From: a virus
Taxonomy: Duplodnaviria; Heunggongvirae; Uroviricota; Caudoviricetes
Reading direction: 5' to 3' (one strand)
IMG/VR virus record: IMGVR_UViG_2700989168_000009
Length of the DNA stretch: 15,890 nucleotides
The translations under genes and the position numbers were made by a program. The notes beneath the pieces were generated by a model that was not told the DNA's origin, ran no database searches, and saw nothing but the letters and a program-made list of their open reading frames with translations. The first letter of the stretch is position 1; every line of letters starts with the position of its first letter. Shown here in pieces: positions 1 through 6,858 of the stretch.

Positions 1-1230
1 ATGAGCAGAGCACTTAACAAACTGAGCGATACACAGCTGAGGAAAATCAACGGCACACCCGCCCAAAAAACAGCCTTTCTTAATGACGGTGGAAACCTGA
101 GCGTCAGGCATTCAACCAGTGGCCTTTTAACCTGGTATTTCACTTACAGGGCCGGAACGGGAAGGGGGGCACCACCGGAACGCATTAAGCTGGGAAATTA
201 TCCTGATCTGAGCCTGAAATCAGCCAGGGAAAAAGCCGCCCAGTGTCGCGCATGGCTGGCAGAGGGGAAAAATCCACGTCATGAGCTTAATTACACCGTA
301 CAGGAAGCGTTAAAGCCGGTAACGGTTGGCGATGCGCTCACCTACTGGCTTGAGTCGTACGCAAAGGAAAACCGCGTGGATTATGCCGCCCTGAAAAAGC
401 GCCTTAATAATCACGTAATACAGCACATTGGTGCTATGCCGCTGGATAAATGCGAGCTACGGCACTGGCTGGCCTGTTTTGACCAGGTGGCAAAGCGAAC
501 GCCTGTTACTGCCGGATTCTTGCTACAGACGTGCAAACAGGCGCTTAAGTTCTGCCGGAGGCGGCGCTATGCAATCAGCAACGTTCTTGATGATATGAGT
601 GTGGCGGACGTTGGGAAAAAACCGGATATAAGCGAGCGTGTCTTAAGCACCAAAGAACTGGGCGAATTATTGCAGGCACTGGACAAAAAAATATTCTCCC
701 CCTACTACATCGCGTTAATCCGCCTCCTGATTGTGTTCGGATGCCGGACGGTAGAACTGAGGTTATCGGAGATCAGCGAGTGGGATTTTACCGAAATGCT
801 CTGGACCGTGCCGAAAGAACACAGCAAAACGAAGGTGGCAATATTCCGGCCCATACCGGAAGCAATACTGCCGTTCGTCACGCAGCTGGTGGAGCAGAAC
901 AGGCACACGGGCTTATTGCTGGGGGAAGTGAAACAGGAAACAAGCGTGTCGCAGTACGGCAGATTAGCGCACAGGAGGCTAAATCACCCTCACTGGTCAC
1001 TACATGACATCCGGCGCACCTTTACAACGATGCTGAACGATTTAGGCGTGGATCCTCACGTCGTGGAGCAGCTTACAGGCCACCAGATGCCAGGAATGCA
1101 GCGAGTTTATAATCATTCCCGTTATCTGGATGCTAAACGCAATGCGCTGGATATGTGGACGGAGCGGTTAGGGATACTGGCGGGAACACATGAAAACGTA
1201 ACCACGCTACCAGTAGCCAGAAGAAAATAA
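1..1230 (+). CDS. int: Tyrosine recombinase / phage integrase (P4-type satellite integrase), 409 aa
   Basis: Complete ORF (ATG at 1, TAA at 1228-1230). C-terminal catalytic region with HDIRRTFTT (His-x-x-Arg) and YNHSRYLD (nucleophile Tyr) typical of the phage integrase family. Followed by alpA in the same orientation, as in P4-like islands and PICIs. Confidence 0.9.
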   Translation: MSRALNKLSDTQLRKINGTPAQKTAFLNDGGNLSVRHSTSGLLTWYFTYRAGTGRGAPPERIKLGNYPDLSLKSAREKAAQCRAWLAEGKNPRHELNYTVQEALKPVTVGDALTYWLESYAKENRVDYAALKKRLNNHVIQHIGAMPLDKCELRHWLACFDQVAKRTPVTAGFLLQTCKQALKFCRRRRYAISNVLDDMSVADVGKKPDISERVLSTKELGELLQALDKKIFSPYYIALIRLLIVFGCRTVELRLSEISEWDFTEMLWTVPKEHSKTKVAIFRPIPEAILPFVTQLVEQNRHTGLLLGEVKQETSVSQYGRLAHRRLNHPHWSLHDIRRTFTTMLNDLGVDPHVVEQLTGHQMPGMQRVYNHSRYLDAKRNALDMWTERLGILAGTHENVTTLPVARRK

Positions 1231-1270: not shown

Positions 1271-1322
1271 GAACAGATACAACGTGCAACAATGAGCAAC
1301 AATGCGGAACAACTACGAACAA
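1271..1322 (+). repeat. Helically phased array of (C/G)AACAA direct repeats (10-bp period) in the int-alpA intergenic region; candidate regulator or excisionase binding sites
   Basis: CAACAA at 1287 and 1297, GAACAA at 1307 and 1317, degenerate GAACAG at 1271 and ACAACG at 1279. Shares the core AACAACGTG(C/G)AACAA with arrays at 6619-6644 and 14297-14312 (opposite strand). Confidence 0.55.
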
Positions 1323-1514: not shown

Positions 1515-1543
1515 TTGCCAACTCTGAATCATCCTGACACAAT
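1515..1543 (+). promoter_or_regulatory. Candidate sigma70 promoter for alpA
   Basis: -35 TTGCCA (1515-1520), 17-bp spacer, -10 CACAAT (1538-1543), about 60 nt upstream of the alpA start. Sequence-only prediction. Confidence 0.35.
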
Positions 1544-1604: not shown

Positions 1605-1793
1605 GTGTTAAGCACTGATCGGTTTATACGTGAAAAAGAATGCGAAAAGCTAACAGGCCTTAGCCGCTCATGCCGCTACCGCCTGGAAAAGGCCGGACAA
1701 TTCCCATCACGTCGTAAACTTGGCGGTCGTTCCGTTGGCTGGTCTTTATCCGAGGTTCTGGCCTGGAAGGATAGCTGCAAGGCAGTTCATTAA
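1605..1793 (+). CDS. alpA: AlpA-family DNA-binding regulator / excisionase-like protein, 62 aa (GTG start)
   Basis: GTG at 1605 preceded by SD AGGGGG (1594-1599). Protein contains LTGLSRSCRYRLEKAGQFPSRRKLGGRSVGWSLSEVLAWK, the hallmark winged-helix signature of the AlpA/Xis family. Sits immediately after int. Confidence 0.85.
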   Translation: MLSTDRFIREKECEKLTGLSRSCRYRLEKAGQFPSRRKLGGRSVGWSLSEVLAWKDSCKAVH

Positions 1794-3470: not shown

Positions 3471-3770
3471 ATGAAACTTAAATATTCTGGCTTAACTGCC
3501 AGTGGCAACACTCACCCTAAATTTACGCGCGGTGATATTTACCGCGACCAGTACGGCGGCATGGTAACGATTAAAGGCGTGGCAGAACGGCGCATCACCT
3601 ACCGCCGTGAAGGTTACGAATATGATTGCGTGATGCCTGTTTATCAATTCCGGCGTGATTTCACGCTGGTACAGGCAGCGCCCCGCAGTAAACCAACCAG
3701 CAGGGAGAAAGCACGCGCCAATATTCAGGAAATAAAAAAGATGCTTAACGTATTCAGGGGTAAAAAATGA
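3471..3770 (+). CDS. Hypothetical protein, 99 aa
   Basis: ORF track 3471..3770. Stop TGA overlaps the primase ATG (ATGA at 3767-3770), suggesting translational coupling. Confidence 0.55.
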   Translation: MKLKYSGLTASGNTHPKFTRGDIYRDQYGGMVTIKGVAERRITYRREGYEYDCVMPVYQFRRDFTLVQAAPRSKPTSREKARANIQEIKKMLNVFRGKK

Positions 3771-5515
3771 AACTGGCACCGAACGTAAAAAAACAGCCAC
3801 GCGGAATAAAACACAAAGACACAGAGGTAATTATCTTTGCGGGTAGTGATGCCTGGTCGCACGCGAAACAATGGCAGGAGCAGGATGGCCCCGCATCCGG
3901 CGATAATGTGCCGCCTGTGTGGCTTGGGCCAAATCAGCTTGCCGAACTTGATGCACTGAAAATTGTTCCGGATGGAAAAAAACGCGTAAGGCTGTACCAG
4001 GCCGGAGAACTGGATTTGGTGGAGACCAAAAAGATTGGTCAGAAGCTGGCGGCGGCAGATATTCAGGACGCAAATTTTTACCCCGAAGGAATGCACGTCC
4101 AGAAGTGTGAAAACTGGCGGCGCTATCTGAATGCTGAGCGTGAAAATATTGCCGCAGGGCTTACCATGCCGGAGCAGAAAAATACGCAACTGGCACAAAT
4201 GGCAGACAGTGAGCGCGCGCAGCTGCTTGCCGAGCGCTTTGATGGCGTTTGTGTGCATCAGGAAAGTGAAATCGTTCACGTATGGCGCGGCGGGGTATGG
4301 TGTCCGGTCAGCACAATGGAACTTAGCCGCGAAATGGTGGTGATCTATTCAGAGCACAGGGCCACTTTCAGCAAGCGCGTAATCAATAACGCCGTGGAAG
4401 CGTTAAAAGTTATTGCCGAACCAATGGGCGAGCCGTCCGGCGATTTGCTGCCGTTCGCCAATGGTGCGCTTGACCTGAAAACGGGGGAATTTTCCCCGCA
4501 CACGCCGGAGAACTGGATCACCACGCACAACGGCATTGAGTACACGCCACCAGCACCAGGGGAGAACATCCGCGATAACGCGCTAAACTTTCATAAATGG
4601 CTTGAGCACGCAGCCGGAAAAGACCAGCGCAAGATGATGCGTATATGTGCCGCGCTGTACATGATTATGGCGAACCGGTACGACTGGCAGATGTTTATTG
4701 AGGCCACCGGAGACGGCGGGAGCGGTAAAAGTACATTCACACACATAGCCAGCCTTCTGGCAGGGAAACAGAACACGGTAAGCGCTGAAATGACATCGCT
4801 TGATGATGCTGGTGGACGTGCGCAGGTTGTCGGGAGTCGTCTTATCGTCCTGGCTGACCAGCCGAAATATACAGGCGAAGGAACGGGCATCAAGAAAATC
4901 ACGGGCGGTGACCCCGTGGAAATTAACCCGAAATACGAAAAGCGTTTCACGGCTGTAATCAGGGCGGTGGTGCTGGCGACCAACAATAACCCGATGATAT
5001 TCACCGAACGGGCCGGAGGTGTGGCACGTCGTCGCGTGATTTTCCGTTTCGACAATATCGTTAGTGAGGCCGAAAAAGACAGGGAGCTACCGGAAAAGAT
5101 TGCGGCTGAAATCCCTGTCATTATCCGCCGATTGCTGGCGAACTTTACCGACTCTGAGAAAGCACGGGCTTTACTACTGGAACAGCGTGACGGTGATGAA
5201 GCTCTGGCAATAAAGCAACAGACGGATCCGGTTATTGAGTTTTGCCAGTTCCTGAATTTTCTGGAGGAAGCACGCGGCCTGATGATGGGCGGCGGTGGCG
5301 ATTCAGTGAAGTACACGACCAGAAACAGCCTTTACCGCGTCTATCTGGCGTTTATGGCGTACGCAGGCAGGAGCAAACCGCTAAACGTAAATGACTTTGG
5401 CAAGGCTATGAAGCCAGCCGCGAAAGTTTACGGACATGAATATATTACGCGGAAAGTTAAGGGAGTAACGCAGACTAACGCAATAACAACAGACGAGTGC
5501 GACGCGTTTTTATAA
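3767..5515 (+). CDS. Replication initiator: primase / SF3 (P4/D5-type) helicase, 582 aa (PICI pri-rep-like)
   Basis: 582-aa ORF with Walker A GDGGSGKST (nt about 4709-4735) and a downstream hydrophobic stretch LIVLADQ as a Walker-B-like element, in the arrangement of the P4-family primase C-terminal helicase domain. An iteron origin lies immediately downstream, as in PICIs. Confidence 0.85.
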   Translation: MKLAPNVKKQPRGIKHKDTEVIIFAGSDAWSHAKQWQEQDGPASGDNVPPVWLGPNQLAELDALKIVPDGKKRVRLYQAGELDLVETKKIGQKLAAADIQDANFYPEGMHVQKCENWRRYLNAERENIAAGLTMPEQKNTQLAQMADSERAQLLAERFDGVCVHQESEIVHVWRGGVWCPVSTMELSREMVVIYSEHRATFSKRVINNAVEALKVIAEPMGEPSGDLLPFANGALDLKTGEFSPHTPENWITTHNGIEYTPPAPGENIRDNALNFHKWLEHAAGKDQRKMMRICAALYMIMANRYDWQMFIEATGDGGSGKSTFTHIASLLAGKQNTVSAEMTSLDDAGGRAQVVGSRLIVLADQPKYTGEGTGIKKITGGDPVEINPKYEKRFTAVIRAVVLATNNNPMIFTERAGGVARRRVIFRFDNIVSEAEKDRELPEKIAAEIPVIIRRLLANFTDSEKARALLLEQRDGDEALAIKQQTDPVIEFCQFLNFLEEARGLMMGGGGDSVKYTTRNSLYRVYLAFMAYAGRSKPLNVNDFGKAMKPAAKVYGHEYITRKVKGVTQTNAITTDECDAFL

Positions 5516-5530
5516 TTTTTTGTAATTGCT

Positions 5531-5754
5531 GTCTACCCTGTCTACCTGAGTAAAGAAAAATACATTTAATTCAGTGCATTAAGTTAGGTAGATAGCCTTT
5601 TTTTACTGTCTACCCACTATCTACCCTCTCTACCTGATTTTACCTGAATCAGACAGGGAGGTAGACACGGGGTAGATAGTGGATAAAAGCACTCTACCCC
5701 GCTGAAAGCAGCGCCATTACTGGCATGAGGGCCACTAAGGTAGATAAGGTAGAC
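5531..5754. repeat. Iteron-type replication origin: 11 copies of the 7-bp unit (G/A/C)TCTACC in both orientations flanking an AT-rich spacer
   Basis: GTCTACC at 5531, 5540 and 5608; ATCTACC at 5619; CTCTACC at 5628 and 5692; inverted GGTAGA(C/T) at 5587, 5660, 5671, 5739 and 5748. AT-rich stretch 5549-5586. Directly downstream of the primase/helicase gene. Confidence 0.7.
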
Positions 5755-5803
5755 AAGGGGAGGCACAACTCAAAACTTTTTAAACGAGGGGGTAAAAATA
5801 AAT

Positions 5804-6577: not shown

Positions 6578-6609
6578 AGCCGGAGCAATCCGGCTTTTTG
6601 TTATTTTTT
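6578..6609 (+). terminator. Rho-independent terminator
   Basis: AGCCGGA-GCAA-TCCGGCT perfect 7-bp stem with a tetraloop, followed by TTTTTGTTATTTTTT. Confidence 0.7.
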
Positions 6610-6618
6610 GTAAATTAT

Positions 6619-6666
6619 TTGTTCGTGGTTGTTCCACGTTGTTCACTGAGCGGATCGGCATATTTT
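6619..6666 (+). promoter_or_regulatory. Phased TTGTTC x3 array (10-bp period) overlapping a candidate promoter of the head/packaging operon
   Basis: TTGTTC at 6619, 6629 and 6639 (GAACAA on the minus strand). Candidate -35 TTGTTC (6639-6644), 16-bp spacer, -10 TATTTT (6661-6666). Internal dyad CGTGG-TTGTT-CCACG. 15-bp core identical to 14298-14312. Confidence 0.5.
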
Positions 6667-6702
6667 ACCCGAACTGAATCATGATTATTCTCGCCCGTGG
6701 TG

Positions 6703-6828
6703 CCAGGACGCTGGGGCCACTTTCCCGCCTGTTAATGTGCTCGCCAATATTCATTACCAGGCGGGAAAACGATCGGTGCGATTACTGATTTCCTTATGAA
6801 AAACGGTTGAGTGTTTGCCGCGTCCTGG
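6703..6828 (+). other. Structured leader upstream of the capsid gene: nested inverted repeats
   Basis: Perfect 11-bp inverted repeat TTTCCCGCCTG (6721-6731) / CAGGCGGGAAA (6758-6768), enclosed by a 9-bp inverted repeat CCAGGACGC (6703-6711) / GCGTCCTGG (6820-6828). Confidence 0.4.
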
Positions 6829-6858
6829 AGTTCCTTACTTAACCCCAGGACTTTTTTT

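Follow-up and report, generated by a model that had tools for sequence, protein, structure and literature searches.

We propose that the helically phased TTGTTC arrays of this island are operators for its own AlpA protein, which would bind them both as an excision factor and as a transcriptional activator; on the strength of sequence comparison we give this reading a probability of roughly two in three (0.65). The arrays, runs of a TTGTT core (AACAA on the other strand) repeated at exact 10-bp intervals, lie in both attachment arms, in front of the capsid operon and, inverted, in the spacer between int and alpA, and across related islands they covary with the type of AlpA rather than with the type of integrase (Int). 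Three of the four arrays fall within the window, by which we mean the whole stretch of 15,890 nt analysed here.

A Pfam scan of the window finds int, alpA and primase genes together with genes for capsid, protease, portal, connectors, HNH, TerS and TerL, as well as a DUF4222 protein and a PerC-like ORF; tail and lysis genes are absent from the window, and an Rfam search of the whole window returned no families. The main genes are:

1-1230, plus strand: int, a P4-type tyrosine integrase with an N-terminal arm-DNA-binding domain (Pfam PF13356, PF00589)
1605-1793, plus strand: alpA, 62 aa (Pfam PF05930, E = 5e-18), starting 375 bp after the end of int
3767-5515: D5-type primase (Pfam)
6860-13338: HK97-type head and packaging module, with capsid, protease, portal, head-completion protein, connector, HNH, TerS and TerL (Pfam)
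from 14430, minus strand: phoQ

Because this module and the gene order are those of annotated cf-PICIs (the identical organisation is annotated between roxA and phoQ in E. coli IAI39 and many further strains), the element is, judged by its gene content, a PICI of the capsid-forming kind (cf-PICI), integrated at the 3' end of phoQ and resembling the described type EcCIEDL933; the capsid gene carries a nonsense codon. EcCICFT073 shares the chromosomal site, and its AlpA is 95% identical to that of the window. The arrays, together with the regulatory and attachment features discussed below, are:

1278-1322, plus strand: site 1, int-alpA spacer, TACAA and then four AACAA at exact 10-bp spacing
1515-1543, plus strand: candidate alpA promoter, sigma-70-like TTGCCA-17-(TG)aCACAAT, invariant across aligned diverged int-alpA spacers
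6578-6606, plus strand: intrinsic terminator, AGCCGGAGCAATCCGGCT and then a T run, ending the upstream replication/PerC unit before site 2
6619-6644, minus strand: site 2, late-operon array, reading TTGTTC on the plus strand at 6619, 6629 and 6639
6661-6666, plus strand: candidate -10 hexamer TATTTT, 16 nt past the last TTGTTC (6639-6644), read from sequence
14287-14312, minus strand: site 3, attR (P) arm array, reading TTGTG, TTGTTC and TTGTTT on the plus strand, 10 bp apart
14330-14353, plus strand: 12-bp-period doublet GGTGTAGTTAAT GGTGTAGTCAAT (second half GGTGTAGTyAAT; GGTGTAGTnAnT twice), candidate integrase arm-type sites
14396-14408, plus strand: IHF-consensus-like AATCAATGACTTG, between doublet and core, read from sequence
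14422-14431: att core GGACATATTT, overlapping the phoQ stop codon and forming the right island boundary, from attL and attR compared with the empty K-12 site

Within the window, AACAA/TTGTT cores stand at exact 10-bp spacing in three stretches (1278-1322, 6619-6644 and 14287-14312). An earlier note on this DNA had reported SAACAA in the int-alpA region at 1287, 1297, 1307 and 1317, and TTGTTC ahead of the capsid operon at 6619, 6629 and 6639; all of these are present, the former as SAACAA on the plus strand and the latter on the minus strand, where a further copy lies at 14297. Of the two right-end copies in that note, 14297 is genuine and 14307 is a degenerate TTGTTT. Other degenerate units lengthen the arrays in phase (TACAA at 1278, TTGTG at 14287); the GAACAG at 1271 falls outside the 10-bp register and is unlikely to be an array unit. 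The 15-mer TTGTTCCACGTTGTT said to be common to sites 2 and 3 is indeed identical at both, one base away from where it had been placed (6629-6643 and 14297-14311, not 6630-6644 and 14298-14312); with two 2-mismatch copies in the int-alpA array this gives 4 matches against 0.04 predicted from shuffles, and ACAACGTGCAACAA, also attributed to the int-alpA site, was found there at 1279-1292.

The phasing of these arrays is non-random, unlike the raw motif count. Window-wide, SAACAA occurs about as often as chance predicts (25 seen, 23.0 +/- 4.7 expected), whereas there are three exact-10-bp core runs, of 4, 3 and 2 units, against an analytic expectation per window of 0.05 pairs and 7e-5 triples; 300 second-order Markov simulations gave a mean of 0.017 runs and a 3-unit run in 0/300. 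When any 4-mer recurring at least three times at 10 bp was searched for, only these arrays and one GTGAC array emerged; the latter, at 13883-13920, is unrelated to the TTGTTC arrays.

Scans with the AlpA sequence returned 69 loci from IMG/VR (AlpA 89-98% identical) and 3 from genome contigs, the IMG/VR scans supplying the comparison set; the islands in this sample are close relatives from Enterobacteriaceae, and several seemingly independent observations therefore share ancestry. Among about 68 loci with a type-1 AlpA, exact-10-bp TTGTT/AACAA runs occur almost solely in four position classes, given here relative to alpA:

attL arm: about -1685, TTGTT on the plus strand
site 1: -297 to -327, AACAA on the plus strand, in nearly all of the roughly 68 loci
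site 2: +4.8 to +6.8 kb, TTGTT, usually 3 units
attR arm: the fourth position class in these loci

The phased motif, which the earlier note had proposed to look for in related islands, is thus found again in dozens of them, at the same four positions. The three sites of that note are all real, and to them must be added a fourth array in the attL arm, about 55-90 bp upstream of the int start and just outside the window, which begins at the int ATG so that attL is not included; this array reads TTGTTCCAGC TTGTTTCACG TTGTAGCCCT TTGTGC in IAI39, EcCICFT073 and islands at other loci. All units within a site are co-oriented, with 2-6 units per site 10 bp apart, and units pooled from related islands give the consensus TTGTTCSnnR. 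The arrays belong to the islands: the island DNA of nine annotated E. coli loci (119 kb) contains 29 arrays and the flanking chromosome (157 kb) none, so that in this sample the motif does not approach in the host the density it has in the islands, one of the points on which the earlier note had expected its proposal to stand or fall. A search of 41 kb from CFT073, covering chromosomal and lambdoid-prophage sequence, found no 10-bp array, and 1.13 Mb of mostly prophage DNA around HE-PICIs yielded only 2-unit pairs at about chance level plus three site 2 cassettes. In CP4-57, the original K-12 AlpA element, we found no 10-bp array, only a 12-bp doublet upstream of intA, and CP4-57 therefore offers no family-wide precedent for the arrays.

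Phased repeats need not imply a sequence-specific binder: they could be slipped tandem repeats, or DNA bent for architectural reasons, and Tandem Repeats Finder does call site 1 a 10-bp tandem repeat. The variation at site 1 makes this very improbable. Its 35 unique variants, which fall into several diverged spacer families, keep ACAA invariant in 10-bp register while 4-5 spacer bases vary freely and the number of units ranges from 2 to 6; information content at unit positions 6-10 (the spacers) is 0.14-0.75 bits, core positions are invariant, and units are gained or lost in 10-bp steps (as in L041 and L210), one variant of site 1 having an exact 10-bp unit insertion. An invariant core amid variable spacers is, at the level of these alignments, the signature of selection; moreover, unlinked positions share this core, which is found in either orientation, and TTGTTC units are not A-tracts.

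If a protein does read the arrays, Int is an obvious candidate, and the earlier note had offered integrase arm sites as its alternative. The arrays would then be arm-type sites for the N-terminal domain of Int, and their internal copies would let Int regulate transcription; Int does carry an arm-DNA-binding domain, the arrays, like lambda arm-type sites, are found on the two att arms with the same orientation, and in the first few islands compared similar Int N-domains were found wherever arrays occur. The anatomy of the arms makes this reading quite unlikely. The crossover core reads GG(A/G)CATATTT at 14422-14431 (attL and attR versus the empty K-12 site), which places the right-hand site, correctly described in the earlier note as near phoQ, in the attR arm, with about 126 bp between its centre and the core, which overlaps the stop codon of phoQ; this array is kept in the attR of islands at tqsA, abgR/smrA, cspD/clpS and thiM-adjacent loci. 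On both arms a 12-bp doublet follows 7-18 bp after the array (18 bp in attR, from 14287-14312 to 14330-14353; the attL array likewise adjoins a doublet in related islands), with doublet centres at about -85 and about +142 bp from the core centre. Beyond the doublet, exact GGTGTAGT has no further occurrence in the window. The element at 14396-14408, between doublet and core, resembles the IHF consensus, WATCAANNNNTTR.

When doublet, Int N-terminus and AlpA are tabulated across loci, it is the doublet whose sequence changes along with the N-terminal domain of Int, in five lineages: i) GGTGTAGTTAAT pairs with Int MSRALNKL...SVRHSTSG; ii) GGTGTAGTCACT, changed on both arms, pairs with Int VSRAMNKL...SVKYLTSG, whose N-domain is 78% identical to that of the GGTGTAGTTAAT lineage although the rest of Int is 95% and AlpA 100% identical; iii) TGTGTGGTCAGT pairs with an Int whose N-domain is 47% identical, and TTGTTC arrays are present beside it; and iv) TGTGTATTGCAA pairs with the HE-PICI Int. 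The TTGTTC arrays, in contrast, persist across four Int arm types, including the one with the 47% identical N-domain, and are unchanged between the GGTGTAGTTAAT and GGTGTAGTCACT lineages, which share AlpA; the number of lineage changes behind the covariation is three or four for the doublet; for the arrays it is two or three. Because the doublet follows the arm-binding domain of Int, the 12-bp doublets are likely the integrase arm-type sites, and their four half-sites suit an Int tetramer; the likenesses of the doublet to lambda arm-type or Xis sites conflict, and we give them no weight. Further, the arrays are not confined to the att arms, recurring at internal promoters 1.3-6.6 kb from the core; the seventh position of their units follows the type of AlpA and not that of Int; and two unrelated motifs for a single domain would be unlikely.

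The case for AlpA as the reader of the arrays begins with the protein itself. Its structural model is an excisionase-type winged helix (pLDDT 87), for which the best fold match is the GIsul2 excisionase (8c3t, TM 0.79-0.86), with further matches to MerR-type wHTH domains, RdfS (8dgl), Pukovnik Xis and TorI. Relatives of AlpA are excisionases (PMC10803314, PMC9376610), and wHTH excision factors oligomerise head-to-tail on DNA and are often transcription factors as well (PMC11963761). In EcCICFT073, which carries the arrays, alpA is required for excision and sufficient to trigger it, and AlpA autoactivates PalpA but leaves the activity of Pint unchanged; expression of alpA is turned on by helper phages (PMC6092414). 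In PICMIs, too, AlpA is necessary and sufficient for excision (PMC10803314). The arrays have what is looked for in sites of an excisionase or recombination directionality factor, namely a wHTH gene beside int, direct repeats at the helical turn, and a position in the att arms next to the doublets, and the occurrence of one motif at both att and element promoters is what is expected of operators for a factor with a second role in transcription.

More specific is the way in which the arrays change with AlpA. Arm units read TTGTTYC with a type-1 AlpA and TTGTTCG with a type-2 AlpA whatever the type of Int, the seventh base being C in type-1 and G in type-2 islands. The scan of 1.13 Mb around HE-PICIs revealed no TTGTT array in their arms, and the recognition helix of HE-PICI AlpA differs (LANSTRWKMEQ vs LSRSCRYRLEK). 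The promoter of a homologous 464-aa early gene is near-identical between type-2-AlpA islands and one HE-PICI except in its repeats, three 10-bp units reading TTGTTCG in the type-2 islands and TTTTTCG in the HE-PICI; one type-2 island has lost exactly one of these units. The earlier note's proposal that one DNA-binding protein recognises all sites is thus favoured by the recurrence of one motif at the same four positions, and its candidate, AlpA, by the comparative evidence.

The same observations bear on whether another factor might be the binder: an inducer from the helper phage, a host response regulator of the OmpR/PhoB type, or another conserved island protein. Response regulators typically read direct repeats spaced by about a helical turn, helper phages induce alpA and one of the arrays lies upstream of alpA, and the site 2 cassette is identical under different types of AlpA. 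Against this, response-regulator repeats usually have an 11-bp period and the arrays are exactly 10; a host factor is unlikely because the arrays are absent from chromosomal DNA, the 157 kb of flanking chromosome arguing against a host regulon; and there is no obvious reason why a phage inducer should require sites on the two att arms. As for other island proteins, the DUF4222, PerC-like, orf92 and orf93 proteins of HE-PICIs are 75-88% identical to those of the window, and since HE-PICI arms lack arrays these proteins are unlikely binders. We regard another factor as improbable, and prefer AlpA. Types 1 and 2 of AlpA differ at several recognition-helix and wing residues, and because the site 2 cassette is identical under both, operators for AlpA would require the specificities of the two types to overlap. 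A PhoP box, suggested by the neighbourhood of phoQ, was considered and rejected: the period is 10 bp and not 11, and arrays are also found at four other loci.

Nor do the arrays behave as replication-origin iterons of the primase or initiator. Iterons are phased direct repeats as well, and in that respect the likeness is real, but distinct TCTACC iterons lie directly after the primase gene, at 5529-5758, the arrays are neither adjacent to nor specific for an initiator, and the same arrays are found in islands with primase-type or RepA-helicase-type replicons. This reading is hardly credible.

Were AlpA the binder, it would load head-to-tail along one face of the DNA in the manner of lambda Xis, with different consequences at different sites. 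In the att arms, where it would sit beside the integrase doublets, it may act as a recombination directionality factor that shapes the excisive complex. That excision-factor sites should be found on both arms is a departure from the lambda paradigm, and counts against the proposal.

At the late operon, site 2 lies between the intrinsic terminator at 6578-6606 and the capsid/packaging operon, its last unit where a -35 hexamer would be expected. The hexamers of this promoter score under the threshold of a consensus promoter scan, and their status as -35 and -10 is therefore a matter of inference; a diverged variant of the cf-PICIs (L223) has the same TTGTTC-16 nt-TATTTT spacing, and we suggest that TATTTT at 6661-6666 is the -10 of an AlpA-dependent late promoter. 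The cassette TTTTGTAAATTA-TTTGTTCGTGG-TTGTTCCACG-TTGTTC is kept in cf-PICIs with AlpA of either type 1 or type 2, and follows four different terminators in different islands. Site 2 could thus be a late promoter that is both insulated and dependent on an activator, its AlpA units lying near -35, -45 and -55; bound at about -35 to -60 of this weak promoter, AlpA would turn on the capsid and packaging genes. The 190-nt leader after site 2 is strongly structured (z = -4.0) and has at its 3' end a terminator-like hairpin abutting the capsid start codon, which makes a second layer of control at the late operon likely. Antitermination by P. aeruginosa AlpA was rejected as a model, that protein having an unrelated Q-like fold and a single GGGACG element.

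Site 1 is the least straightforward of the four. It lies 48-92 bp beyond the int stop and 283-327 bp ahead of the alpA start, inverted relative to the other three sites (its reverse complement gives TTGTTC-type units), and more than 190 bp upstream of the promoter-like element at 1515-1543, the sole such element for alpA that is conserved; in EcCICFT073 it is present with 6 units. The inverted array might mediate the autoregulation of AlpA reported for EcCICFT073, and we tentatively regard site 1 as an autoregulatory operator, with low confidence about the mechanism. Two features of site 1 count against this: its orientation is opposite to that of all other sites, and it is about 230 bp from the predicted transcription start of alpA. 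Counting against the AlpA reading more generally, type-2 islands have a different array (AAATATCG, three or four times) at the equivalent position, and the array they carry nearer to alpA, inverted like site 1 and only about 135 bp from that gene, is no more than GTTCG-like. At the attL array, which lies directly upstream of int, the unchanged activity of Pint in EcCICFT073 is likewise counter-evidence: it fits a purely architectural role there and is not predicted by the activator model.

Two other ideas about the spacer were dropped. A leftward antisense promoter driven by AlpA from site 1 into int (CTGTTC-16-CATACT on the minus strand), judged by eye, was abandoned because the palindrome and the -10-like element are absent in spacer variants of the EcCICFT073 type. 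A small ORF with a ribosome-binding site at AAGAGGTGAAAAA after site 1 was rejected, as type-2 islands have no conserved start codon downstream.

A bolder extension, which we consider rather unlikely, is that one 62-residue protein runs the entire satellite switch through a set of helically phased operators whose orientation carries the code. The arrays of common orientation, on both att arms and ahead of terminator-insulated operons, would permit excision and the transcription of late or early genes; the inverted int-alpA array would pair across int with the attL array, some 1.4 kb distant, and either set a threshold for AlpA feedback or insulate int. If this were true, the operator word (TTGTTYC, TTGTTCG or TTTTTCG) would be an exchangeable specificity code for each allele of AlpA, one that keeps co-resident PICIs from cross-inducing.

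There is ample precedent for excisionases that also serve as transcription factors on phased repeats, and the mechanism will not surprise specialists. Lambda Xis is a winged-helix protein that binds head-to-tail at about 10-bp spacing (X1-X1.5-X2) beside an Int arm-type site and bends the arm; it differs from what we propose for AlpA in that its sites are on one arm (P2 to core) and that it activates no late genes, whereas the PICI arrays are on both arms and, on the P arm, distal to the doublet. P2 Cox is both excisionase and transcription factor, acting through short direct repeats about a helical turn apart at attP and at promoters, but it is not of the AlpA family, recognises another motif, and mainly represses the Pc promoter of its own phage. 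P4 Vis, from the work of Polo and of Cali and their colleagues in 1996 and 2004, is said to regulate late promoters and to serve in excision, with boxes between int and the attP core. Like AlpA it is a small AlpA/Xis-type protein of a satellite with a P4-type integrase; the PICI sites, in contrast, are on both arms, in regular 10-bp arrays of 2-6 units, one of them at the capsid-operon promoter. Vis, required for excision, has been called the P4 homologue of PICI AlpA, although PICI AlpA is only remotely related to it (PMC6092414). RdfS of ICEMlSymR7A, a wHTH excision factor, acts at attP and at promoters and couples excision with expression (PMC11963761); no consensus is evident among its sites, which it reads indirectly, unlike the PICI arrays with their sharp 5-6-bp core. 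P. aeruginosa AlpA has an eight-helix Q-like fold with a C-terminal HTH and binds as one monomer to a single GGGACG between -35 and -10 (PMC9371919); it shares with the PICI protein only the name and a promoter element ahead of a terminator-containing leader, the proteins being unrelated.

Closest to the arms described here is the doubled motif tgTGTATTGCantgTGTATTGCa of HE-PICIs, which has a 12-bp period, is co-oriented, lies at -81/+132 from the attP centre (Mageeney et al. 2023, PMC10111431), and was reported as unique to HE-PICIs, its binder being left open between the arm domains of Int and AlpA (PMC10111431). The GGTGTAGTnAnT doublet of the window (about -85/+142) is of the same design, and it is this doublet, not the AACAA array, that is the counterpart of tgTGTATTGCantgTGTATTGCa. 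In searches of the full-text literature we found no description of AlpA binding sites in PICIs, and neither Fillol-Salom 2018 nor the cf-PICI preprint nor Mageeney 2023 settles the DNA targets of AlpA. Apparently new are the predicted operator of PICI AlpA, its four-site layout, its separation from the Int doublets, and the occurrence beyond HE-PICIs of doublets that differ in sequence.

AlpA is the master switch of Gram-negative PICIs, and the predicted operator TTGTTCSnnR offers testable sites bearing on excision, autoregulation and late-gene activation. The doubled motif of HE-PICIs would become a general feature of this integrase clade, and array plus doublet form a compact signature that could help to delimit the ends of PICIs and to predict cross-talk between AlpA alleles. 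Arrays of another kind, with TTGCA-type units, occur upstream of a lambda-like capsid module in islands with either type of AlpA; these belong to the lambda-like capsid module and not to AlpA.

The TTGTT(C)/AACAA units spaced at exactly 10 bp, predicted to be AlpA operators, and the 12-bp-period doublets adjoining them in the att arms can both be followed beyond the window:

L002:16412-16448, a fourth TTGTT array, 4 units, outside the window in attL (P' arm) of the IAI39 island, about 55-90 bp 5' of the int ATG
Window 14330-14353, doublet GGTGTAGTTAAT GGTGTAGTCAAT, 12-bp period
L283:1596-1620, doublet TAGGCCCAttga TAGGCCCAacga, 12-bp period, in CP4-57 of E. coli K-12, 37-60 bp 5' of intA

In attL of the IAI39 island the array is followed by a doublet of two GGTGTAGTTAAT copies. 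EcCICFT073 has the attL array too, as do islands integrated at tqsA, abgR/smrA, and cspD/clpS. Over five lineages, the sequence of the window doublet changes together with the N-terminal domain of the integrase, and its geometry is nearly that of the 'doubled motif' of helper-embedded PICIs (HE-PICIs), published as unique to them (PMC10111431). No 10-bp array was seen near the CP4-57 doublet; that doublet suggests that such repeats are a general arm-site design for P4-type integrases.

Phased 10-bp arrays of other sequence are also present:

L010:13615-13650, L011:13612-13652, and L012:13606-13640, phased AAATATCG-like array of 3-4 units, directly 3' of int in type-2-AlpA islands
Window 13883-13920, GTGAC x4 at exactly 10 bp, separate from the TTGTTC arrays, directly past the last island ORF
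L006:21580-21625 and L011:18808-18845, TTGCA-type 10-bp arrays, 5' of the lambda-like capsid/decoration module in classical PICIs

The AAATATCG-like array occupies the position that site 1, the int-alpA array, has in type-1 islands. The GTGAC array is kept in both cf-PICIs and classical PICIs, with AlpA of both types; the TTGCA-type arrays likewise occur with either type, and are presumably sites of another regulator. A 464-aa early gene is preceded by homologous promoter regions in an HE-PICI and in type-2-AlpA islands: the HE-PICI has three 10-bp units of TTTTTCG(TAG) (L099:3944-3975), whereas the units in the type-2-AlpA islands (L211, L206, L208, and L210) are TTGTTCG, about 227 bp past the alpA start, with exactly one unit lost in L210. 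Another element, with an HE-type integrase and doublet, encodes two AlpA paralogues in tandem (L161:3914-4477), the second with a type-1-like recognition helix (LSRSRRW). The TTGTTC cassette of site 2 is present in this element as well. A further island (L012:12140-26900), cspD-type at its left end and adjoining thiM at its right, where the doublet TGTGTGGTCAGT belongs to another integrase lineage, contains LPS genes, and is probably a composite or rearranged island pair.

Within the window, the spacer between site 1 and alpA, the late-operon leader, and the stretch after the primase gene have features of their own:

1355-1604, conserved block between site 1 and alpA
1418-1444, terminator-like hairpin within this block
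1515-1543, invariant promoter-like TTGCCA-17-TGaCACAAT, also within it
1536-1570, CA-rich stretch following the promoter-like sequence, RACAC spaced 10 bp
3' end of the late-operon leader (6668-6862), GUCCUGG...CCAGGAC hairpin and U7, abutting the capsid AUG
5529-5758, ori-like iterons on TCTACC, directly 3' of the primase gene

The conserved block may represent a leader or a small RNA. Structure in the late-operon leader is strong, with an MFE of -68 kcal/mol and z = -4.0, and its hairpin and U7 suggest that attenuation or antitermination acts on top of promoter activation. The major capsid gene of the window is broken by a TGA at 7684-7686 in place of the TGG (Trp) of homologues, leaving ORFs 6811-7686 and 7687-8016; the same mutation is present in a Shigella flexneri island (L007), so the window copy of the cf-PICI is probably defective, and a Shigella origin of the window is possible. 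The TCTACC iteron set comprises CTGTCTACC x2, ACTATCTACCC x2, and inverted TAAGGTAGA x2.6.
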